From an uncultured Anaerolineaceae bacterium (GTDB taxonomy: Bacteria; Chloroflexota; Anaerolineae; Anaerolineales; Anaerolineaceae), in NCBI GenBank assembly GCA_964624615.1, contig CAZUZM010000003.1, positions 3,241 to 45,419 of the forward strand: DNA of 42,179 nucleotides, read 5' to 3'. The position numbers and the translations under genes are program-made. Below, piece after piece: positions 3,040 through 36,565 of this stretch (positions are counted from its first letter, which is position 1; each line of letters starts with the position of its first letter). The notes under the pieces are model-generated. The model ran no database searches and was not told where the DNA came from. It was given only the letters and a program-made list of their open reading frames with translations.

Positions 3040-3564
3040 CTATGCCAGATTTTGGTCACAAATATCCCGAAATCCACAACTGCGACAACGCGCAGCTTGC
3101 TGATGGGAGCGCTGAGGGCTTTCATCACAGCCTTCAACCTGACGTAAGGCTAAGATGAGGTCGAGGAGTTTTGCTTTTTGAAGGTCATCGTAAGGCACTT
3201 CAAAACTTTTGTCTTCATAGCGAATGATGCCATGGCTTGGCTTTAAACCTTGCGTTTGTTCAATGAGGTAGCAGTACGCCAAAACCTGATAAACATGCGA
3301 ATCATAAGGTTGGATGGGTGCAGACACAGACTTGAAGTCAACCGGTACCAGGCTGCCATCGCGCTGACGAATGACATAATCGGGCTTGCCAACAAGGTTT
3401 AGATCAGCATCATACAAAGGTTTGGGGACGGCTTGTAGTTGATCGGTGTCGGCGTAAACCAAACGGCCAGACGGTAATCCGCTGGCTTGCTTCAAACGCC
3501 AGGCAATAATCAGCAAGAACACTGCCAAAACACAAAGAAGAAGTGCCACAGTCCAAGGGCTCAT
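3040..3564 (-). CDS. Cas4/RecB-like PD-(D/E)XK nuclease, C-terminal half with N-terminal TM helix
   Basis: From ATG 3564: MSPWTVALLLCVLAVFLLIIAW is a TM helix. The nuclease motifs are GKPDYV...VPVDFK (D / D-x-K) and QVLAYCY (QxxxY). The C-terminus has CRSCGFRDIC (C-x2-C-x5-C), typical of the Cas4 Fe-S cluster. The track start at 3729 overlaps the upstream ORF in another frame. Confidence 0.7.
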   Translation of the reverse strand: MSPWTVALLLCVLAVFLLIIAWRLKQASGLPSGRLVYADTDQLQAVPKPLYDADLNLVGKPDYVIRQRDGSLVPVDFKSVSAPIQPYDSHVYQVLAYCYLIEQTQGLKPSHGIIRYEDKSFEVPYDDLQKAKLLDLILALRQVEGCDESPQRSHQQAARCRSCGFRDICDQNLA

Positions 3565-3782
3565 CGTTTCACCCACAATAGTACTAATGCTATAGCAATC
3601 AAAATAAAAGCGACCAAAATAAGAAGTGGTACAAGTTTGACTTGTCGGGCATGACTTTGGTGTGCCTGGGTGCCGGCGTCCATTTGCTCTTGGTTTGAGG
3701 AGACTTCGCCTTGTAACTGGTACCACCAAGCACGTTCGCAGTATAAAAAAGACCCTAATTCTGACGCTTTTATCGTTCGCAT
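3561..3782 (-). CDS. Cas4-like N-terminal fragment (first cluster Cys) with C-terminal TM helix
   Basis: IKASELGSFLYCERAWWYQ resembles the Cas4/DUF83 N-terminal Cys motif. LVPLLILVAFILIAIALVLLWV is a TM helix. The TGA stop (3563-3561) overlaps the ATG (3564-3562) of the next ORF as ATGA. Confidence 0.6.
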   Translation of the reverse strand: MRTIKASELGSFLYCERAWWYQLQGEVSSNQEQMDAGTQAHQSHARQVKLVPLLILVAFILIAIALVLLWVKR

Positions 3783-13366: not shown

Positions 13367-14140
13367 TTACTTGATGCTATAGGTCAAAGTCACTTCATAG
13401 GTCACCACAATTTGACCTGCAGAAATCGGCACGGAGGTATCCATAGCCTGTTTTGCCTCACCGCCACCCATACCATACATCGGGTAAGGTTGAACATAGG
13501 AACTGTTGGTCACATTGATGGTAACGACTTGGTCGATGCTCACACCCATCGTTTCAGCAACAGACTTGGCTTTTGCTTCAGCATCTTTGAGTGCCAGGTC
13601 ACGGGCTTGTTCCTGCGCAGCTTGCCGGTTATCAATATCAAAGCTGATGCCGTTGATTTGGTTCGCGCCGGCTTTGATGGCAGCATCCAGAATCTCGCTC
13701 AGCGATTTGAGGTCGCGCACAGTAACATAAAGGGTATTGTCCACGTTATAGGTTACCCCAATGACTTCGTTGGTCATATGGTCATACTGTTGCATAGGAT
13801 AAACGTTGAAGTTAGCGGTCTGGATATCCTTTTCTTCAACGCCCTTTTTCTTGAGCGCTTCGGTGATGGCCAGGGCTTGTTTGTTGTTTAGGTTAACAGC
13901 CTCGCTCACTTCTTTGGCTTTGCTGTTCACACCCACATTAATGCGGGCAATATCCGGCACCAGGGTAACCATACCGTTACCACCAATGGTGAGCGTTCTA
14001 ATAGTTTGTGATGTTCCCAAGGCTTCAACCTTCTTTCCTGAATTGTCTGTTGGAACTTGTTGCAAAGGCCCACATGCGGCAACAAGTGCGGTGATGATGA
14101 CGACAACGGCAAGGAGCCGCATCCAATTTGAGTTTTTCAT
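13367..14140 (-). CDS. SIMPL (DUF541) domain lipoprotein
   Basis: Lipobox LVAACG. TLTIGGNGMVTLVPDIARINVGV and the C-terminal PISAGQIVVTYEVTLTYSI resemble the SIMPL family. Confidence 0.75.
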   Translation of the reverse strand: MKNSNWMRLLAVVVIITALVAACGPLQQVPTDNSGKKVEALGTSQTIRTLTIGGNGMVTLVPDIARINVGVNSKAKEVSEAVNLNNKQALAITEALKKKGVEEKDIQTANFNVYPMQQYDHMTNEVIGVTYNVDNTLYVTVRDLKSLSEILDAAIKAGANQINGISFDIDNRQAAQEQARDLALKDAEAKAKSVAETMGVSIDQVVTINVTNSSYVQPYPMYGMGGGEAKQAMDTSVPISAGQIVVTYEVTLTYSIK

Positions 14141-14267
14141 TTCTTTCTCCTGTTAATGACTTTCTTGTCTTGTTAACGAATCCTTAGCCGCTTTTGTTCC
14201 AAAATCTTAAAGCCAATCGCTTATAATAGAGCCATGCTGTTTGGCATGACCGTTTTTAGGAAAAATT

Positions 14268-15443
14268 ATGCCCATCAATTACGCTCACATTCATAATAAT
14301 CTCGATCATTTTGCGGATTTAACCCAAAAAAAGCTGGAAGAGCAACGTCAGGCGCTTGAAAAAGTGTTGTCGCAAATCGAAACAGCAGCGAGTGTACAGG
14401 CTGAGGTCGAAGCAGCCGTCCAGCGTGCGGAACAACAAGCTGGCAACCTCTATACCGCCAAGCCCAGCCACGAAGCCATGCTGGCAAGCTTCTCCTTGCC
14501 CGAATGCCCCAAATATTACACGCTCATCGCCGCCGATGGTTCGCAAATCAACCCCAGCCGCCACCGTGCCTTGCAGTTTTGCTTGATCAATGTCGGCTTG
14601 ATTCACGTGGAACATGGTTCTGGCGAGACACCCGTTCAGCAGGTCTTTAGCAAAATCCTCGACCAAGACGAACTCTATACCAACGAAGGGACGCTCATCG
14701 GCGAAGAAGAAGTCGCCCTACACCGTGACCTCTTGGAACGCATCTATTTGATGGAAGCTTTACCAGTAGCTATTGAAAAACCAACCATCACCCTCACCGA
14801 CGGGCCTTTGGAAGTCTTTACCGGACCAACCCTGAGTGGTGAACGCCGGCAAAAGGTACAAGAACAAAACCAGACCATCGAGCAACGCATGCAAGCGCTG
14901 GGCGTCATCAACGCTGGTTACATCGATAAACCAGGCGCGGAAATGATTAACCGCATGCTTGACCTTTTTGCCCAAAGTCAAAGTGCTTCCGACCGCCCTT
15001 ACGAAGCCAAAAAGCGCGCCAATAAAGGTGTCAGTGACCTGGCTATTTTCCAAAACCGTCTGGCACCAGGTGAACGGTCAGCATTATTTTATGTTATTTC
15101 CAAGAACGAGGCCAAACAAGAAGCCACAAAGGTCTGCTTTTTCTTACTCAATGTCAGCAACGATCCCGATGAACCCTGGCTGGCGCGGGTAGAATGCCCC
15201 GCCTGGCTTGCTGAAGACCCGGATACAATAGACATCCTGCACGCCGCGCTTTACCGGGATGCCCAGGTGCTCGACGCCATGCCCTATCCCTATGTGCTCC
15301 ATCGCGCGCACGAATTGGCGGTGGTCAATGTCGCCGAACATGACGAGGTTGAAGAAATGCTTATGTCCCGTCTGGACCATGACCAATTACCATCGGGTAG
15401 CATGTCGCACAAACAAAGTCTAAAATCACTCTCAAAGAGGTGA
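14268..15443 (+). CDS. NurA-like 5'-3' nuclease with N-terminal coiled-coil extension
   Basis: IAADGSQ (catalytic Asp), LTDGPL, GYIDKPGA and the C-terminal PYPYVLHRAHELA resemble NurA-domain motifs. Confidence 0.75.
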   Translation: MPINYAHIHNNLDHFADLTQKKLEEQRQALEKVLSQIETAASVQAEVEAAVQRAEQQAGNLYTAKPSHEAMLASFSLPECPKYYTLIAADGSQINPSRHRALQFCLINVGLIHVEHGSGETPVQQVFSKILDQDELYTNEGTLIGEEEVALHRDLLERIYLMEALPVAIEKPTITLTDGPLEVFTGPTLSGERRQKVQEQNQTIEQRMQALGVINAGYIDKPGAEMINRMLDLFAQSQSASDRPYEAKKRANKGVSDLAIFQNRLAPGERSALFYVISKNEAKQEATKVCFFLLNVSNDPDEPWLARVECPAWLAEDPDTIDILHAALYRDAQVLDAMPYPYVLHRAHELAVVNVAEHDEVEEMLMSRLDHDQLPSGSMSHKQSLKSLSKR

Positions 15444-15445
15444 GC

Positions 15446-16057
15446 ATGAACGAAGTCAAAACCATCCCAATAGGCAAACTCTTGCGCGCCGACAACCGCC
15501 AGTTTGTCGCCGGCTGTCGTGTTAAAGAGCTGGAAACGCCCGCGTTAGGCGGGCTGGTCAAAGCCAAATTGCAAGACCAAAGTGAGGTTTATGGCATCAT
15601 CACACGCATCAGCATCAGTGATGATGGGCTGGTGCGTCAATTGGCATCGGGCACGAGCATTCCGCCCGAATACACCGCCGACAACCGTCACAATCGCAAC
15701 CTGCCGGTGGAGATTGAAGTGCTTACATTGGGTTATGCCCGTGATGGACAGATTTTTCACCAACTTCCGCCCCGCCCACCCCTGAGTTTGGACGTGCTTT
15801 ACCTCTGTGATGATGATGACTTGGTCGCTTTTACCAAACATGGCAACAATCAAGCCTATCTGCGGCACATCCTGCGCCTGCAAGACATGCCCTTGGAAGA
15901 GGTTTTAGTGAGTCATCTCAAAAAAACAAAACAAGCCCACGATGCCCACGGCAACCCAGCTTGGTACACCCAGGCTTGCGAGCGCTTGATTATCTTATTG
16001 CGCGAAGATTACCCACGGTTGACCGCCGTGCTGGATGCCCTTTCAGCGATGGACTGA
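15446..16057 (+). CDS. Hypothetical protein, N-terminus resembles a HerA HAS-barrel
   Basis: ATG 15446 follows an AAGAGGTGA RBS, and the alternative GTG at 15440 overlaps the nurA stop. PIGKLLRADNRQFVAGCRV...GGLVKAKL...VYGIITRISIS parallels PIGFVSGG..LQVRLMV...GAFVVMDS...FYGLVTDLQLG in the downstream HerA. No Walker motifs are present. Confidence 0.55.
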   Translation: MNEVKTIPIGKLLRADNRQFVAGCRVKELETPALGGLVKAKLQDQSEVYGIITRISISDDGLVRQLASGTSIPPEYTADNRHNRNLPVEIEVLTLGYARDGQIFHQLPPRPPLSLDVLYLCDDDDLVAFTKHGNNQAYLRHILRLQDMPLEEVLVSHLKKTKQAHDAHGNPAWYTQACERLIILLREDYPRLTAVLDALSAMD

Positions 16058-16064
16058 GGTAAAA

Positions 16065-17801
16065 ATGACAGACACAAACCAAAACACCGCCTTGACTCAA
16101 ACCATGCAAAACCAACCCATCGGCTTCGTTTCCGGCGGTGGGCTTGAAGCCAACCTACAAGTTCGCCTGATGGTGCCCGCCCAAGAGGTGCAAAGCGGCG
16201 CCTTTGTGGTGATGGACAGTGGCAACTGGCGCTTTTATGGCCTGGTCACCGACCTGCAACTCGGTGCGGTAGACTTGCAATACGCCAATCAGCTCAACAT
16301 CAAGCGTTTTGACCCCGCCCTGTCTGCGTTGCTGAATCAACAGACCCTGTTCACCAACCTGGCTGTCATGCCAGCACTGATGTTGGAACGCGGTCCCGAG
16401 CTTGATTCACCGGACTATAGCGCCTGGCGTGCTTCGCTAACCAAGGAACCCAACCCCATGCCGGTCAAAACCGTACCTGACCATCACACCCCGGTGCGTT
16501 TAGCCGACAAAGCCGACATTGCAGAAATTTTCGGCGAAGAAAGCAAAACCGTTTTCCGCGTGGGCGAAACCCGCGAACAGGGTCATGGCGTTTGCCTGGA
16601 CCTCGAAAAGTTCGTCCAGCGCAGCTCTGGCATCTTTGGCACCACCGGCTCAGGTAAATCTTTCCTGGCACGCATGATTTTGGCAGGCCTCATCCACGCC
16701 GATAAAGCCTCCACGCTCATTTTTGACATGCACAACGAATATGGCATCGACTCAACCAGCTCTGATTCTGGTGCGGCTGTGCCTGGGCTAAAAGGCAAAT
16801 TTGATTCGAAAGTCCGTTTGGTTGGTCTCGGCGCGGATAGCAGTTTTCACAGCCGCCAACCTGATTTCACCCTTGAAATCGCCCACAGTGACATCATGCC
16901 CGAGGATATTCTGCTGCTCGCTGAGACACTCAACCTGACTGATGCCAGTAATGTAACCCTGGATGCACTTTACAGTAAATTTGGCGATAAATGGTTTACG
17001 GCTTTCAAAGACATGAAAATAGGCGCTGGCGCTTATGAAAATGATGAAAACGGCAAGCAAGTCCCCACCGATGGCAGCGTTGCCGCCTGGGCGAACGAAG
17101 CCGGCGTGCATGTCAAATCTGCCGAAGCCGTCCGCCGAAAGCTAGAAGAGTTGATGAACCGCAAGTATCTGGTCGCTGAACCCGCCCGAAACGCCTTGGA
17201 TGACGTCATCAACAATTTGCAAAACGGACGTCATGTGGTGCTTTCTTTTGGACATTATGAGAAAGATATCGACTACTTGATGGTTACTAATCTGATTACC
17301 CGGAAAATACGTGACACCTGGGAAAAAGCCACAAACAAGTTCCACAGCAAAGCCAAAGACGCCGCGGAACCTAGACCTTTGGTCATCGCCGTGGAAGAAG
17401 CTCACAAACTACTCAATCGTGAGATGGCTAACCAAACCATTTTTAGCACCATCGCGCGCGAAATGCGCAAATACTATGTAACGCTTTTGATTATCGACCA
17501 ACGCCCCTCACAAATCTATGATGAGGTCATGTCGCAGCTTGGCACACGCATCTCAGCCTCACTGGGTGACGAAGATGATATCAGTGCGGTACTTTCTGGT
17601 CTACCGGGACGTTCGAGCTTGCGTGGCATGCTCGCTAAGCTACAGCCGAAAGAAGAAGTGCTCATGCTGGGTTGGGGTGTGCCTATGCCCATTCCCATCC
17701 GCTCACGCCGCTATGACCAGGTCTTCTGGCAAGAACTTTTGGGTAAAGACGACAAAAAAGTCACCTCCGCCGCGGACGCCAAGAGAAACCTGGGCTTTTA
17801 A
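16065..17801 (+). CDS. HerA/FtsK-superfamily hexameric ATPase (DUF87-type)
   Basis: Walker A GIFGTTGSGKSF, Walker B VIAVEEAHKLL, and LLIIDQRPSQI. The N-terminus is HAS-barrel-like. ATG 16065 follows a GAGG RBS right after the upstream stop. Confidence 0.85.
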   Translation: MTDTNQNTALTQTMQNQPIGFVSGGGLEANLQVRLMVPAQEVQSGAFVVMDSGNWRFYGLVTDLQLGAVDLQYANQLNIKRFDPALSALLNQQTLFTNLAVMPALMLERGPELDSPDYSAWRASLTKEPNPMPVKTVPDHHTPVRLADKADIAEIFGEESKTVFRVGETREQGHGVCLDLEKFVQRSSGIFGTTGSGKSFLARMILAGLIHADKASTLIFDMHNEYGIDSTSSDSGAAVPGLKGKFDSKVRLVGLGADSSFHSRQPDFTLEIAHSDIMPEDILLLAETLNLTDASNVTLDALYSKFGDKWFTAFKDMKIGAGAYENDENGKQVPTDGSVAAWANEAGVHVKSAEAVRRKLEELMNRKYLVAEPARNALDDVINNLQNGRHVVLSFGHYEKDIDYLMVTNLITRKIRDTWEKATNKFHSKAKDAAEPRPLVIAVEEAHKLLNREMANQTIFSTIAREMRKYYVTLLIIDQRPSQIYDEVMSQLGTRISASLGDEDDISAVLSGLPGRSSLRGMLAKLQPKEEVLMLGWGVPMPIPIRSRRYDQVFWQELLGKDDKKVTSAADAKRNLGF

Positions 17802-17803
17802 CG

Positions 17804-20386
17804 ATGATTCCCAAGAAACTAACCCTCAGTGGCTTCACCTCTTATCGCAATCCGGTAACGCTCGACTTTTCAGCATTCAGCATTGCCTGCGTTTCAGGAT
17901 CAAACGGCTCGGGCAAGTCCTCGATTTTGGATGGCATGACCTTCGCCCTGTATGGCAAAGCACGAAAATCAGATGATTCCCTCATCAACTCTGCCAGCGA
18001 TAAAGCCGAAGTAACCCTCGACTTTGAATATGAAGGACAGACCTACCGCGTGACGCGTTCCCTAACCCGAGGGAAAAGCAGCACGCTTGATTTTTACATC
18101 TACAACCCCGAACCGGAAGAAGAAGGCAGGCACTGGAAGGTGCTCACCGAACACACCATCGGAAACACCAACGCCAAAATTGAGCGTACCTTACGCCTGG
18201 ACTACGAAACCTTCGTCAACGCCTCGTTCTTTTTGCAAGGTAAAGCTGATTCTTTTGCCACCCAAAGACCGGCTGACCGCAAGCGCATCCTTGCCAGTAT
18301 TTTAGGGCTCAATCAATGGGACTTATACCTTAAAGCCAGCAAAGAGCGCAGCACCCAGGTCCGCCTGGAACTCGAAAGGATTGACGCGCGCCTTGCTGAG
18401 ATTCAAAGCGAACTCGATCAGGAAGAGGAACGCAAGGCACGACTGGAAAGCCTGGAAGATAAACTCAAACTCGCCAAGGCCGAGACCAGTGTTTTACAAG
18501 CCCAATTGGATACCGAGCGTGCTAAACAGGAGAAGCTCAAAGAAAAACGCCAGTATGTAGCGCTCCTAAAGCAAAATTTTGACCGTGCCGAAAGCAATCA
18601 CGCCGACACCCTGGCGCGTCGTGACGAACGCCAGGCACAACTGAACAGCTTTAACGAGGTGTTGGCAAACGCTGATCAAACGGAAAAAGACTATCAGACC
18701 TGGCAAGAAGCCCGCAAAGCACTCCAAGCCTTCGACCAGGTTTATGAGCAATTCAAGCCCATGGATGGCAAGCGGCAGGACCTGCTCAGGCAAATCGAAC
18801 TCAAAAAACAATCTCTACAACAAGCTCTCCAGCACCTATTGGACGAAAGAAGAAAGCTTGAGGATGTTCTCAACCGCAGCTTGGACGATCAAAAACAATT
18901 GGATGCCCTGCAGCCAAAAGTTGACTCCTTACAAAAGGAAATCGCCCTTGGGGAAACCCTCCAGGAAGAGATCAACCAGCTCATTGGATTGAAATCCACG
19001 TTGGAAAGCGAGAACAAGAGCCTGCGCCAAAAGATGAATGACCTCAAAGAACGCCAGCTCAAGATTGGCGCGGTGGAAGGCGCGCAATGCCCCTTCTGTG
19101 ACCAAGCGCTTTCAGCGGAGCATCGCCAAAACCTGATTGACAAAATCCAAACTGAAGGTACCAGCCTTGGCAATCAGTTCCGCGAAAACCAAGATAAAAC
19201 CGAAAATGCTGAGCAAGCCCTCAAAGTCAAGAAGCAAGCTTTGCTCAACCGCAATGAGCACCAAAGCACTTTGCAGCATTTGTTAAGGGAAAAAGACCGG
19301 CTGACACAGCTGTTGAACCAAGTCGAAACGCAGAAAAAAACTTTTGAAGCCGAGCGCGCTCCAAAAATCGCTGAATTAGAAGCCCTACTAGAGACTGAAG
19401 CCTTCATGCATGAAGAACGCGCGGCGATTCAAAACATCGAAAAAGAAATCGCCACCCTGGGCTATGACGCCAACGCCCACGCCAGCATCCGTCAAGAAGA
19501 AGCCCGAGCCCGCCTCGCCGAAGCGGCTTATCACGACCTGGGCAAAGCGCGCAGTAGCGTGGAACTGATCAAACAGAACCTCAGCGAACTCGAAACCAGT
19601 CTGATCGGCTCTGAAAAAGAGCGCCAGAGTCAGGAAACAGCCTTTCACCAGGCTGCTGCCAGCCTGGCAGAAGAAGAAGCCCAACTTCCAGACCTTTATC
19701 AACTTGAACGCGATTACATGCTCCAAAAAGAAAAAGAAGCTGCTTTGTTACGCGAACATGGTGGCGCAAGTCAACTGGTCAAAAACCTCGACACCCAACG
19801 CATGCGACAACTAAGTCTCCGTGAAGATCAAGAAGCCCTGATGCAAAATCTGGGACAACTGCGCAGCCTGGAAACCGCCTTTGGCAAGGACGGCGTGCCC
19901 GCGATGCTCATCGAACAAGCGCTGCCCGAACTGCAGGAACAAGCCAATGAGGTTTTGCACAAACTAAGCGACCACACCATGAGCGTCACTTTTAGCACCC
20001 AACGGGAGTACAAAGACAAAAAGCGCGAGGACAAGCGTGAGACTTTGGATATTCTCATCAGCGATGGGTCTTCTACCCGCGATTACGAAACATTTTCAGG
20101 CGGCGAAGCTTTTCGAGTCAATTTTGCCATCCGCTTAGCCCTTTCACGGGTGCTCAGCAGGCGTGCTGGTGCAAAGATGCAGACCTTGGTTATTGACGAA
20201 GGTTTCGGCAACCAAGACCGCCACGGTCGGCAGCTGTTGATCGAAGCCATCAACATGATTCAAGATGACTTTGAGAAGATTTTGGTGATTACCCATATTG
20301 AAGAACTCAAGGACCAATTCCCTAATCGTGTTGAGGTCAGCAAAGATGCTATGGGTTCCTCAACCCTGGATTTAGTCTTGGGATAA
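17804..20386 (+). CDS. Rad50/SbcC-family SMC-like ATPase with central zinc hook
   Basis: Walker A GSNGSGKSS. A long heptad-rich middle region carries CPFC (codons 429-432 of 860) at its exact midpoint. Signature motif FSGGE, Walker B LVIDEGFG, and ITHIEEL. Confidence 0.85.
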   Translation: MIPKKLTLSGFTSYRNPVTLDFSAFSIACVSGSNGSGKSSILDGMTFALYGKARKSDDSLINSASDKAEVTLDFEYEGQTYRVTRSLTRGKSSTLDFYIYNPEPEEEGRHWKVLTEHTIGNTNAKIERTLRLDYETFVNASFFLQGKADSFATQRPADRKRILASILGLNQWDLYLKASKERSTQVRLELERIDARLAEIQSELDQEEERKARLESLEDKLKLAKAETSVLQAQLDTERAKQEKLKEKRQYVALLKQNFDRAESNHADTLARRDERQAQLNSFNEVLANADQTEKDYQTWQEARKALQAFDQVYEQFKPMDGKRQDLLRQIELKKQSLQQALQHLLDERRKLEDVLNRSLDDQKQLDALQPKVDSLQKEIALGETLQEEINQLIGLKSTLESENKSLRQKMNDLKERQLKIGAVEGAQCPFCDQALSAEHRQNLIDKIQTEGTSLGNQFRENQDKTENAEQALKVKKQALLNRNEHQSTLQHLLREKDRLTQLLNQVETQKKTFEAERAPKIAELEALLETEAFMHEERAAIQNIEKEIATLGYDANAHASIRQEEARARLAEAAYHDLGKARSSVELIKQNLSELETSLIGSEKERQSQETAFHQAAASLAEEEAQLPDLYQLERDYMLQKEKEAALLREHGGASQLVKNLDTQRMRQLSLREDQEALMQNLGQLRSLETAFGKDGVPAMLIEQALPELQEQANEVLHKLSDHTMSVTFSTQREYKDKKREDKRETLDILISDGSSTRDYETFSGGEAFRVNFAIRLALSRVLSRRAGAKMQTLVIDEGFGNQDRHGRQLLIEAINMIQDDFEKILVITHIEELKDQFPNRVEVSKDAMGSSTLDLVLG

Positions 20387-33420: not shown

Positions 33421-35154
33421 TTATATCTGAATTGTACCTGTTAATTCAGAAACTGAGGTAAGAATGTCTTTAGCAGATTGTAAAATGCTTTCAGAGTCAC
33501 CGCCCAACATGCTGGCGAGCTCTCGCTCGCGCTCCTCACGGGACAGTTGCTTCACTTGGGTAACGGTGCGCGAGTCACTTTCCGCCTTGCTGGCTTGGAA
33601 GTGCTGGTCAGCAAACGCCGCCAGCTGAGGCAAGTGGGTCACGCAAAGCACTTGATGCTCACGCGCCAACTGCCAAAGCATTTTGCCAACCGTCATGCCG
33701 ATGCGCCCACCAATACCACTGTCGATTTCATCAAAAACAAGGGTTGGAATTTGATCCGCTTCTGCCAAGACATGCTTAAGCGCAAGCATTAGACGTGATG
33801 TTTCACCACCGGAGGCAATTTTTGCCAACGGTTTGAAGCCTTCGCCAAGATTTGTTTCGATGAGAAATTCCACCTGATCAATGCCGTGTTGGTCAAAAGC
33901 GAGGTTCGCGCCCTCAATAGTCAAGCCATTTGCGTCTGCCTTGTGGTGAATCTGAACCTGAAACGTTGCTTTTTGCATCTGCAAGGCAGCTAGTTCCTGG
34001 CTAATGGCGCTTTGCATCGTTTTGGCGGCAGCAAGCCTCGCTTTACTTATTCTCAAAGCTTTTTTAGAAAGACTTTCCTTAACTCGCTCTAATTTTTGGC
34101 TTACTTCTTTTATCTGTTCGTCTATAGAGTCGATATTCTCCAACTCCACGCGGCTCTTTTCCAAATGGACTAAGGCGCTTTCAATCGACCCGCCGTATTT
34201 CTTCTTGAGCAGCTGCAAGGTGTTCAAGCGTTCTTCGACTTGATCCAAACGTCCCGGCTGAAACTCCATGCCTTCCAGATAAGCTCGCAAGTCATAAGCG
34301 ATGTCCGCCAGGGTGCTCAGCGCTTCTTCAGCCCGCGTAGCGAGGTCTTGCGCTTCGGCGTCGATGCGCGCCAGATCATGCAAAAAATGTGCTGCCTGCC
34401 CTACCAAGTCTGTCGCTGCCATTCCTTCGGCAGAGCCTTCATCAATCGCCATTAAGGCTTGTTGGCTGAGAGAACTGAGGGCTTCGGCATTCACCAGACG
34501 CGTGCGCTCTGAACGCAGACTTTCGTCCTCGTCGGTTTGAGGTTTAGCGCTTTCTATTTCCTGAATTTGGAAGCGCAACATATCCACCCGCTGAGCGGCC
34601 TGTTTTTCGATGTCTGTCAGCTTGTTAAGCTCCTCTTTTAAGCTCAACCAGGTTTTGTAGTCCGCCTTAAAGGTATCTAAATCTTCACTGAGGTGTGCAT
34701 ACCGATCCAAAAGCTCGCGGTGGCTGCGCACATTAAGCAAACTGAAATGCTCGGACTGCCCGTGGATATCCGCAAGGAGTGCGCCAAGTTCAGCTTGAAG
34801 ACTCACGCTCACCGCACGCCCATTGACCCGGGCAATGGTGCGGCCTTCGGCACGAATTTCCCGCCCTAAAGTCAAAAAGTCTTCATCATCCCAAAGACCT
34901 TCTTCTTCCAACAAGGCTTTGACCAGCGGTTTTGTGGCGTCGTCAAGCTCATACACGCCCTCCACGATGGCTTTGCTCTCGCCTTGACGAATGATGGTGG
35001 TATCCATGCGCTCGCCAAGGATGGCACTGAGCGAATCCAAAACAATAGACTTACCAGCGCCGGTTTCACCGGTAAAGATAATCAAGCCTGGCTTAAAATC
35101 CAGGCTCAACTGCTCGATGATGGCAAAGTTTTGGATGTGCAGCTCTTTGAGCAT
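33421..35154 (-). CDS. recN: DNA repair protein RecN
   Basis: MLKELHIQNFAII...FTGETGAGKSI, a coiled-coil middle region, ASGGE and LVFDEIDSGIGG. Confidence 0.95.
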   Translation of the reverse strand: MLKELHIQNFAIIEQLSLDFKPGLIIFTGETGAGKSIVLDSLSAILGERMDTTIIRQGESKAIVEGVYELDDATKPLVKALLEEEGLWDDEDFLTLGREIRAEGRTIARVNGRAVSVSLQAELGALLADIHGQSEHFSLLNVRSHRELLDRYAHLSEDLDTFKADYKTWLSLKEELNKLTDIEKQAAQRVDMLRFQIQEIESAKPQTDEDESLRSERTRLVNAEALSSLSQQALMAIDEGSAEGMAATDLVGQAAHFLHDLARIDAEAQDLATRAEEALSTLADIAYDLRAYLEGMEFQPGRLDQVEERLNTLQLLKKKYGGSIESALVHLEKSRVELENIDSIDEQIKEVSQKLERVKESLSKKALRISKARLAAAKTMQSAISQELAALQMQKATFQVQIHHKADANGLTIEGANLAFDQHGIDQVEFLIETNLGEGFKPLAKIASGGETSRLMLALKHVLAEADQIPTLVFDEIDSGIGGRIGMTVGKMLWQLAREHQVLCVTHLPQLAAFADQHFQASKAESDSRTVTQVKQLSREERERELASMLGGDSESILQSAKDILTSVSELTGTIQI

Positions 35155-35157
35155 GGC

Positions 35158-35694
35158 TTAATTGCGGGCTCCTTTAGATTGCGCATATGCGCTGGCAGCA
35201 AGCAGTCCAGCATAAACAATATACCAGATGATGCTTCCAGCACCAGCCAGAATATTTCCCGATTTAATCATCAGCAGGAGTTGGCGGATCAACAAGGGGC
35301 TGGCGCCAACAAGGGCGCCAAACAAAACGCCAAGATCAATCCGTTTGCCACGCCGTCGTTTGAGCACCAGCCGGTTGACCCGATAAATGAGCAAACCAAG
35401 CCCGGTTGCCACCAAAATGATAATGAAACCCAAGGGCGCCACCAACCAACTTCCGGCAAAAGCAATCACTGCGGCAACAAAAAAAGCAATGATAGGGTCT
35501 GTGGCATGGGAGCTATCAAAAACCCTTTGCTGGCTCTTCACGCAATTCTTGCAGCGATAGCCGGTTGGGGTAAGCACTGCCGTCTGGGGTGTAATTGGGA
35601 TATTACAGCGATTACAGCGCAAAACTGGCGCATCATCTTGCATCAGTTCATTGAAATCGCTGGGAATGTTTGGGGTATTTTCTGAATTAGTCAT
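35158..35694 (-). CDS. Zinc-ribbon membrane protein, unknown function
   Basis: CNRCN...CKNC ribbon followed by about four hydrophobic helices. It overlaps the nadK stop by 8 nt and ends 3 nt before recN. Confidence 0.6.
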   Translation of the reverse strand: MTNSENTPNIPSDFNELMQDDAPVLRCNRCNIPITPQTAVLTPTGYRCKNCVKSQQRVFDSSHATDPIIAFFVAAVIAFAGSWLVAPLGFIIILVATGLGLLIYRVNRLVLKRRRGKRIDLGVLFGALVGASPLLIRQLLLMIKSGNILAGAGSIIWYIVYAGLLAASAYAQSKGARN

Positions 35695-36565
35695 CTTTGT
35701 TTATCTTTAATATGGGGTTCAGGCGCATCACGGTCGCCAAATCACGGTAGAAGTAGTTCGGTTCGCCGAAGCGCACCATTTTTAGGGAGTTTTTGTTGCA
35801 ACTCACCACCACCCGGTCACTGTTGTTGAGGTAAATCGGGCGCATACCGTCCACGCTTAAAATGGCATCATTGTCACTCTTCTTGCGCAGGGTCACCTTA
35901 GCGCCTTCAGCTAAAACCACACCACGATCCAAAGAAAGGTGCGGTGACACCGGTAAGATGAGCATATTGCGCAACTCGGGCGGCAAAATGGGACCACCAG
36001 CGGAAAAAGCATAGGCCGTAGAACCCGTGGCAGTGCTGACAATCAAACCATCCGCCTTATAGGAAGCCAAAAAGCCTTCGCTAAGGTCGACACGTACCTC
36101 AATCGGGCGTACGTCGCTGCCCCGACTGATGACGATTTCGTTGATAACATCCCACCGTCCATTAACGATGTCGTTGCGAACCAACTCCGCGTTGAGCATC
36201 ATGCGACTTTCGATGCGGAAGTCGCCCTTCATTAAACGATCGAGTTTGGTGGTCAGATCTTCATCCTTAACTTCCACCAAAAAGCCAAGTGTGCCGGCCT
36301 GGATGCCTAAAAGCGGCACTTCATTCACCGCACAGAGGTGACCAGCGCGCAAAAGCGTACCGTCGCCACCGATAACAATCACCAAATCGCTGCCTACAAG
36401 AACTGGTTTATCACTTTTGCTATCAAAGTCATAGGCAAAAATGTCAGTATGCACATTGCGGCCGTGAAAATACTCATGAACGTCCTTGGCAATCGCCATG
36501 GCTTTGGGCACACCAGCATTTGGCATGAGTAAAATGTTCTTGGGAATAAAGTTTTGCTCTGACAT
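35687..36565 (-). CDS. nadK: NAD+ kinase
   Basis: VIVIGGDGTLLRA and STATGSTAYAFSAGGPI. Confidence 0.92.
   Translation of the reverse strand: MSEQNFIPKNILLMPNAGVPKAMAIAKDVHEYFHGRNVHTDIFAYDFDSKSDKPVLVGSDLVIVIGGDGTLLRAGHLCAVNEVPLLGIQAGTLGFLVEVKDEDLTTKLDRLMKGDFRIESRMMLNAELVRNDIVNGRWDVINEIVISRGSDVRPIEVRVDLSEGFLASYKADGLIVSTATGSTAYAFSAGGPILPPELRNMLILPVSPHLSLDRGVVLAEGAKVTLRKKSDNDAILSVDGMRPIYLNNSDRVVVSCNKNSLKMVRFGEPNYFYRDLATVMRLNPILKINKDD

Follow-up and report, generated by a model that had tools for sequence, protein, structure and literature searches.

A predicted HAS-barrel subunit joins NurA and HerA in a conserved Anaerolineae operon, which one lineage has coupled to a Rad50/SbcC gene with no sbcD beside it

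The window analyzed here, that is, the full 42,179-nt stretch of contig CAZUZM010000003.1 of an uncultured Anaerolineaceae bacterium (GCA_964624615.1), carries four tightly packed genes that encode a NurA-type nuclease, a 203-residue protein (hereafter P203), a HerA-type ATPase and a Rad50/SbcC-type ATPase. Our results show that the conserved core of this operon is nurA-P203-herA and that the Rad50-like gene is a lineage-specific addition to it. We consider it probable that the locus is a vertically inherited chromosomal operon for double-stranded DNA end processing, built on a three-subunit NurA-P203-HerA core with a lineage-specific coupling to SbcC. In the literature consulted, the bacterial NurA-HerA machine, which has been studied in Deinococcus and is reported from the Deinococcus-Thermus phylum, consists of two proteins, and we found no description there of a third NurA-HerA subunit. 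What is new here is a conserved, unannotated, putative third subunit of the bacterial machine across the Anaerolineae, a major, environmentally dominant class that carries a three-gene version of NurA-HerA. The operon comprises the following features:

14141..14267 (127 nt), plus strand: intergenic region between the divergent SIMPL/DUF541 gene and nurA, presumed to hold the promoter
14268..15443, plus strand: nurA, 391 residues, matching PF09376
15446..16057, plus strand: P203 gene, 203 residues, HAS barrel by predicted fold
16065..17801, plus strand: herA, 578 residues, with DUF87 and HerA_C matches
17804..20386, plus strand: sbcC/rad50, 860 residues, Rad50/SbcC-family ABC ATPase
19088..19099, plus strand: codons of the CPFC zinc hook (C429-P-F-C432), midway along the coiled coil, with a PF04423 match

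The four genes are codirectional and separated by gaps of 2, 7 and 2 nt, as verified base by base. That is, nurA ends with TGA at 15441-15443 and the ATG of P203 follows at 15446 behind AAAGAGG, with an alternative GTG start at 15440 that would create a GTGA overlap with nurA; P203 ends with TGA at 16055-16057 and the herA ATG follows at 16065 behind GAGG; and herA ends with TAA at 17799-17801, followed by the sbcC ATG at 17804. The mechanical open reading frame (ORF) of herA begins at 16035, the HerA proteins of relatives are 568-575 residues long, and ATG 16065 was taken as the start. The operon promoter is presumed to lie in 14141..14267; a sigma-70-like match at 14241-14269 was no better than chance, and promoter and terminator counts were not above the shuffled expectation. 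A sequence-only reading that preceded this analysis had described four tightly joined, codirectional genes for a NurA-type nuclease, a HAS-barrel protein, a HerA/FtsK-type ATPase and a Rad50/SbcC-type ATPase with a CPFC hook at its midpoint. Both the layout and all four assignments hold up, the latter by profile searches and, for the small protein, at the level of its predicted fold.

The evidence for a three-gene core comes from the homologous loci (labelled L001 and so forth) that were screened with the four window proteins as queries. In a species scan with one genome per species, at least 587 genomes encode a P203 relative; the best 80 of these, which were examined as loci, are all Chloroflexota and mostly Anaerolineae, Anaerolinea thermophila, Longilinea and Leptolinea among them, and close homologues are annotated as Anaerolineaceae or Chloroflexota. 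The nurA gene adjoins P203 in every locus screened, and of the 79 loci whose sequence reaches far enough downstream, about 77 have herA there as the third member of the nurA-P203-herA trio. A Rad50-like gene follows herA in every closer relative whose contig extends past herA, as well as in L037, L041 and L055, so that the four-gene order, whose conservation in relatives the sequence-only reading had proposed to check, recurs in 35 loci (counting the window, L085 and L086). About 30 more distant trio loci lack a Rad50-like gene within 10 kb, and they share no alternative fourth gene. Since the trio is conserved whether or not rad50 is attached, the small subunit belongs with NurA and HerA and not with Rad50. 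The earlier description of an extra small subunit lodged between nurA and herA thus stands as regards its position, but not as regards its membership in a Rad50 machine.

The junctions are conserved as well. Between nurA and P203 the median distance is -4 nt, 70 of 85 cases fall within 20 nt, and no other gene ever intervenes; the P203/herA junction has a median of +6 nt (within 20 nt in 49/65); and the herA/sbcC junction has a median of -14 nt and is within 20 nt in all but one of 35 loci (34/35). The 14-nt herA/sbcC overlap itself is kept in 25 of the 35 loci even though SbcC identity drops to 39% among them. Strong constraint seems to act on each of the four proteins; HerA, for instance, is 56-87% identical across loci, with 204 of its 578 residues at least 95% conserved.

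The NurA assignment is carried by a PF09376 match of 63.3 bits (cutoff 21; 3.3e-17) that covers residues 85-353 and model positions 2-254 of 254, leaving an N-terminal extension of ~84 residues that is predicted to be helical. The motifs IAADGSQ, TDGPL and PYPYVLHRAH quoted by the sequence-only reading are all found in the translation, and D90, G91, S92, Q93, E157, D178, H345 and H348 are at least 95% conserved among 73 orthologues. In Pyrococcus furiosus NurA, the metal-binding residues follow a D...E...D...H pattern. For HerA, PF01935 (DUF87) matches at 107.6 bits (1.3e-30) and HerA_C at 22.9 bits, and among the NCBIfam models HerA_Thermprot scores highest, with 87.5 bits, far below its cutoff. 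The Walker A (GTTGSGKS), Walker B (VIAVEEAH) and IIDQRPSQ motifs are invariant in the orthologues, and the protein aligns along its length to Sulfolobus solfataricus HerA (4D2I; E=2.7e-17), its residues 20-71 aligning to HAS residues 4-52 of the latter, a domain that by itself scores only 4.6 bits. Judged by these matches and motifs, HerA is most simply described as a HerA/FtsK-type hexameric translocase ATPase that has its own N-terminal HAS barrel.

P203 matches nothing in Pfam (E<=0.1), NCBIfam or PADLOC, and its named relatives carry only the annotation "hypothetical protein". Nonetheless the family is sizeable, with ~990 close matches, 539 representatives at 50% identity and a uniform length of ~200 residues. 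An AlphaFold2 model built from a 62-sequence alignment has a predicted local distance difference test score (pLDDT) of 93.1 and a predicted template modelling score of 0.88. In it, about residues 7-120 fold into a beta-barrel that carries two inserted helices, and about residues 123-200 make up a helical domain at the C-terminus. At E<=0.001, Foldseek comparison of this model with the PDB gave 55 matches; each of the 50 listed (E from 1.8e-6 to 6.5e-4; 120-154 aligned columns) is a HerA-family chain, including DUF4297-HerA, Thermococcus kodakarensis HerA-NurA, S. solfataricus HerA, SIR2-HerA, TdpA and Deinococcus radiodurans HerA. Because the only barrel of HerA chains is the N-terminal HAS domain, P203 is, at the level of its modelled fold, a HAS barrel with a helical tail, its homology to HerA not being significant at the sequence level; and since the window HerA keeps its own HAS barrel, P203 would be an additional, free-standing one.

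The most conserved stretch of P203 is the nearly invariant motif I57-x-D59-D60-G-L-V-R-Q-L66, which in the model forms the loop and first helix after the fourth barrel strand. In both solved HerA-NurA complexes, NurA docks on the HAS ring of HerA: in D. radiodurans its binding depends on the acidic HAS residues D78, E80 and D81 (PMC9960219), and in T. kodakarensis HerA touches NurA with the alpha-1 helices and the loops ahead of them (PMC12977600). By the order of secondary-structure elements, as opposed to superposition, the P203 motif appears to occupy a position analogous to these NurA-contacting elements. This position, coupled to the uninterrupted, overlapping junction with nurA, makes it most likely that P203 binds NurA, the HAS ring of HerA or both, as an adaptor, collar or gate. 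As a detached copy, by predicted fold, of the domain through which NurA and HerA dock, P203 offers a handle on how nuclease recruitment, gating or regulation takes place at the motor. Two longer representatives that resembled NurA-P203 fusion proteins (P0173 and P0165) are frameshifted reads and were rejected.

The fourth protein, as judged from its profile and motif matches, is a genuine Rad50/SbcC with a split ABC head and a long coiled coil. It matches Pfam AAA_23, SbcC_Walker_B, SMC_N and Rad50_zn_hook, with head matches spanning residues 4-847, and residues 407-451 match the zinc-hook model PF04423 with 24.5 bits (cutoff 24.3). The CPFC hook occupies residues 429-432 of 860, with C429, P430 and C432 at least 95% conserved, and the Walker A, Q-loop, SGGE, Walker B (DEGFG) and H-loop motifs are conserved among 30 orthologues. 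The best PDB matches are archaeal Rad50 heads, Thermotoga maritima Rad50 and E. coli SbcC. With 259 bits on TIGR00618 (sbcc; cutoff 478.5) and 101-131 bits on the Rad50 equivalogs (cutoffs 700-1087), the window SbcC is a divergent family member that falls below the SbcC/Rad50 equivalog and subfamily cutoffs.

As the sequence-only reading had it, Mre11/SbcD is missing from the operon: neither protein was found in the window or in the fetched flanks (<=10 kb on each side) of any related locus, including the 35 four-gene loci, by phmmer with E. coli SbcD and by a hidden Markov model of five Anaerolineales-type SbcDs. A motif search with D.H, GD..[DHEN] and GN[HD][DE] is too strict, in that true SbcDs with GDAYKD escape it. 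A ~265-residue metallophosphoesterase encoded between P203 and herA in six distant relatives was considered as a cryptic Mre11 and rejected as CpdA/GpdQ/Rv0805-type: it scores 71-87 bits on NCBIfam cAMP phosphodiesterase, matches GpdQ and Rv0805 in the PDB and has no capping domain.

Where the sbcC gene came from is indicated by its orthologues. A metagenome scan seeded with orthologues of the window SbcC yielded 80 loci (L087-L166), five of which (L134, L138, L145, L149 and L154) encode a canonical SbcD of ~411 residues directly or closely upstream of the sbcC orthologue; the SbcC orthologues of L167 and L168 are also beside a canonical sbcD. The SbcDs of the five metagenome loci carry the motifs ILHFADAHID, GDAYKD, GNHD and GHIH. 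Of the 50 metagenome loci whose upstream sequence is 1.5 kb or longer, 45 have sbcC standing alone, with no sbcD, as does L084. A family-2/21 glycosyltransferase gene directly follows the SbcC orthologue in 42 of the 80 metagenome loci (e.g., L087:10560-11741) and is also found in L167 and L168, that is, with or without sbcD. A 150-residue AAA_33-like gene lies between sbcD and sbcC in one locus (L167:11263-11715), and the ~930-nt gap between the two genes in L138 and L154 may hold such a gene as well. In a neighbour-joining tree, the herA-linked, sbcD-linked and solo SbcCs make up one Chloroflexota clade, far from E. coli SbcC, in which the herA-linked proteins are essentially one group and the sbcD-linked ones are nested among the solo ones; the window SbcC is 42-45% identical to the compared sbcD-linked, solo and L055 examples. 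SbcD itself is abundant and highly conserved in Anaerolineales (the best 120 matches listed are all at least 81% identical to the query), and we found no description of SbcD in Anaerolineae in the literature consulted. The sequence-only reading had taken a canonical sbcD beside the gene in close relatives as a sign of local loss; orthologous SbcCs do stand in canonical sbcD-sbcC pairs, a situation near to that condition, although these pairs belong to sister lineages with SbcC 42% identical to that of the window.

One relative carries both arrangements on contig_3979 (992,069 bp; locus L065), in which the trio lies at ~152-156 kb and sbcD-(AAA_33)-sbcC at ~222-226 kb, on the same strand and 66 kb apart. 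There, sbcC is followed by the glycosyltransferase gene, cytochromes and then, on the minus strand, a phosphoribosyltransferase (PRT) gene, a gene for a 297-residue protein and PriA, and a second genome repeats the order sbcD-sbcC...PRT-PriA. The window order, nurA-P203-herA-sbcC followed by MFS, PRT and PriA genes on the minus strand, is collinear with that of contig_3979. Based on this collinearity with one genome, the four-gene operon looks like the ancestral order minus the intervening sbcD-containing segment, which would have been removed or relocated. Because the segment between the trio and sbcDC of contig_3979 also includes a pst operon, a plain deletion is no more likely than a rearrangement, and after a rearrangement sbcD could survive elsewhere in the genome. 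The Rad50 without Mre11 at the locus is an SbcC of otherwise canonical type whose gene was joined to the operon in one lineage, and an archaeal-style linkage of Rad50 with HerA-NurA can apparently arise independently through genome rearrangement.

Alternatively, sbcD might have been lost from the genome, leaving an Mre11-independent machine in which SbcC uses NurA via HerA, possibly bridged by P203, as a four-subunit complex. The uniform lack of SbcD at the 35 four-gene loci and their flanks is consistent with this alternative, and so are the retention of the 14-nt herA/sbcC overlap despite SbcC divergence, the collinearity just described, which points to the removal of sbcD at the time herA became joined to sbcC, and the many solo orthologues of SbcC in the phylum. 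In archaea, Rad50 and HerA are known to be linked through Mre11 (PMC2288612), so that a direct coupling of the two would also have a functional logic. The absence of sbcD is seen at the level of the locus only, however, conserved SbcD is abundant in Anaerolineales, and the genes for SbcC and SbcD need not be linked; P203 and NurA-HerA show the same conservation in genomes with no attached sbcC and so did not evolve for Rad50; and the pst operon argues for a rearrangement with which sbcD could have moved along. On balance, we regard this alternative as possible but unlikely. Similarly doubtful is its more specific form, in which sbcD/mre11 was lost genome-wide, SbcC works directly with NurA-P203-HerA, and P203 as the adaptor replaces the archaeal Mre11-HerA and Mre11-Rad50 contacts. 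If true, the sbcD-less reading would provide a natural Mre11-independent, Rad50-dependent end-resection complex. The biological meaning of the herA-sbcC fusion hinges on whether the genome retains sbcD, and the fusion, with no adjacent sbcD, represents a test case for a Rad50-type ATPase without an Mre11-type nuclease.

It is also conceivable that the juxtaposition is coincidental, NurA-P203-HerA and SbcC (the latter with an unlinked SbcD) being independent repair activities that a genome rearrangement brought into one transcription unit, HerA and SbcC having neither a physical nor a mechanistic link. The trio stands without an adjacent sbcC in ~30 relatives, SbcC orthologues elsewhere are solo or paired with sbcD, and the four-gene form is essentially one clade plus L037 and L055, all of which fit such an arrangement. 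Yet the coupling of herA and sbcC has been kept across a deep clade, with the tight junctions noted above, and both products act on DNA ends, making neutral co-expression improbable; we consequently give this explanation little weight.

Hence, we favor the end-processing operon with a three-subunit core and a lineage-specific SbcC coupling. Under this hypothesis, the HerA ring would thread duplex DNA using ATP and feed it to NurA, which would degrade it, while P203, made in step with NurA via the overlapping stop and start codons, would be an adaptor, collar or gate that sits at the interface of NurA and HerA or regulates it. SbcC would sense and tether DNA ends through its zinc hook. In the window lineage, sbcC would have become translationally coupled behind herA by a rearrangement that took sbcD away from the locus, and end recognition (SbcC) and long-range resection (NurA-P203-HerA) would therefore be co-expressed.

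Several points weigh against this interpretation. Neither PDB sequence searches nor a NurA profile search matched the window NurA to a NurA of known structure, and its single-sequence model (pLDDT 41) is unusable. The hhalign comparison of P203 with the HerA family is weak (probability 3.8%, 39 columns); the match itself, which speaks for the HAS-barrel assignment, pairs P203 residues 18-57 with residues 19-66 of the window HerA, a stretch that aligns in turn to HAS residues 4-52 of S. solfataricus HerA. In two loci (L052 and L068), the 10 kb downstream of nurA-P203 hold no herA, and these could reflect rearrangements or assembly problems. The physical complexes, the role of P203 and the functional coupling of SbcC with HerA and NurA, protein contacts included, are ones that we infer, and the herA-sbcC juxtaposition could be functionally neutral. 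Finally, HerA-NurA itself has been proposed to destroy foreign DNA (PMC12977600), and degradation of foreign DNA by archaeal HerA-NurA has also been suggested elsewhere (PMC3326311); repair and defence are thus not cleanly separable, and by analogy NurA-HerA may have a secondary role in degrading foreign DNA.

The genomic context bears on this last point. Upstream of the operon in the window are genes for DnaK, phosphoglucomutase (PGM), a nitroreductase and the divergent SIMPL/DUF541 protein, and downstream are those for an MFS transporter, PRT and PriA; genes for RNase HII and RecN with NAD kinase, and glgC, are found farther from the operon. The divergent gene is located as follows:

13367-14140, minus strand: SIMPL/DUF541 gene, divergent from nurA

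This gene lies divergently upstream of nurA in 53 of the 80 related loci, distant ones included, and closer relatives keep the flanking synteny, with PGM and SIMPL on one side and MFS, PRT and PriA on the other. In three relatives, ligD and ku are located just beyond SIMPL, near the four-gene operon (L086:78-3505, L016:4234-7661 and L019:4391-7812). No relatives of the operon were found in the viral contigs searched. Given the conserved gene order, the strong constraint, the housekeeping synteny and the lack of viral copies, the locus is apparently a core, vertically inherited chromosomal locus and not a mobile defence island.

An anti-phage or anti-plasmid system, which the sequence-only reading had kept as the alternative, would combine a HerA ATPase and a nuclease effector, as in SIR2-HerA, DUF4297-HerA or TdpAB, with an SMC-like sensor resembling Lamassu LmuB. 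There are family-level PADLOC matches of this kind (111 bits for HerA on the HerA model and 76 bits for the Rad50-like protein on LmuB), P203 has defence HerAs among its best structural matches, and the proposals for archaeal HerA-NurA cited above point the same way. In PADLOC-DB 2.0, however, NurA and P203 match nothing and no complete known anti-phage system was found, and HerA scores comparably on the archaeal repair HerA equivalog, all of these scores being far below cutoffs. Further, presence in no fewer than 587 species genomes, a gradation of identities like that expected of vertical descent, flanks of syntenic housekeeping genes as opposed to a variable island, absence from viral contigs and an SbcC orthologous to canonical sbcDC genes all speak against defence. 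We therefore favor a repair role, to which the adjacency of Ku and LigD also points, and judge a dedicated defence system to be very unlikely.

A few additional features of the window and of related loci are worth reporting. In the rest of the window PADLOC detects, apart from generic domain matches, only a lone Cas4-like PD-(D/E)XK nuclease gene (3040-3729, minus strand; 58 bits) that lies 11 kb away from the operon, with no cas genes or CRISPR array nearby, and an ArsR/Csa3-like helix-turn-helix protein is encoded at 778-1842. A 577-residue RecN-like SMC_N ATPase (33421-35154, minus strand), next to the NAD kinase gene (35687-36565, minus strand), is the second DNA-repair ABC ATPase of the window and is unrelated to the operon. 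In distant relatives, the P203/herA spacer is a hot spot of insertion, with inserts of the CpdA/GpdQ-type metallophosphoesterase (six loci), GIY-YIG, four-helix-bundle (rRNA-intervening-sequence-type) and GxxExxY types. The inserts are located as follows:

L056:10584-11489, P203/herA spacer insert
L060:2961-3902, P203/herA spacer insert
L063:4740-5546, P203/herA spacer insert
L066:7029-7841, P203/herA spacer insert
L071:7608-8204, P203/herA spacer insert
L073:4683-5549, P203/herA spacer insert
L045, L065, L067, L076, L078 and L079: further loci with P203/herA spacer inserts

Insertions of 4-5.5 kb also occur in this spacer, in L053 and L057 (L057:10678-15936); that of L053 holds an opposite-strand ORF of 973 residues (L053:10683-13601, minus strand).

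In comparison with known systems, the operon most readily recalls the archaeal herA-mre11-rad50-nurA operon of Sulfolobus, Pyrococcus and Thermococcus, with which it shares the tight packing of genes for NurA, a HAS-barrel HerA and a zinc-hook Rad50 and, as far as can be deduced for the window operon, a role in DNA-end processing. It differs from the archaeal operon in having no mre11, in its order (nurA-P203-herA-sbcC) and in the extra, unrelated P203 gene; further, its host is bacterial (Chloroflexota) and its Rad50 gene is a bacterial-lineage SbcC that was recruited secondarily in one clade. Among bacteria, a close parallel is the NurA-HerA pair of D. radiodurans (DR_0836/DR_0837; 7F6D, 7WRW), likewise a chromosomal nurA-herA operon whose NurA has an N-terminal extension, and by analogy the window NurA would be expected to dock on the HAS ring of HerA. 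The Deinococcus system consists of two genes, whereas in the window a 203-residue HAS-barrel gene, conserved class-wide, lies between them, and the window HerA is closer in sequence to archaeal and defence HerAs, the Deinococcus HerA not being matched at E<=1e-3.

The SbcC of the window resembles that of E. coli SbcCD (sbcDC; 6S6V) in its split ABC head, long coiled coil and CxxC hook, and its orthologues in sister Anaerolineales directly follow a canonical 411-residue sbcD. In the window and 34 related loci, in contrast, sbcD is absent from the locus and herA is in its place, and the window protein, at 860 residues vs. ~1,050 for E. coli SbcC, is only 23% identical to the latter. Finally, SIR2-HerA, DUF4297-HerA and TdpAB are similar in that the HerA hexamer shows its HAS face to an effector and, for TdpAB, in that a HerA-like protein is paired with a NurA-like one. 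Unlike these defence systems, the window operon has no SIR2, DUF4297 or dnd partner and is distributed like a core gene as opposed to patchily, and its third, HAS-barrel subunit and its true SbcC are features that set it apart from all of them.

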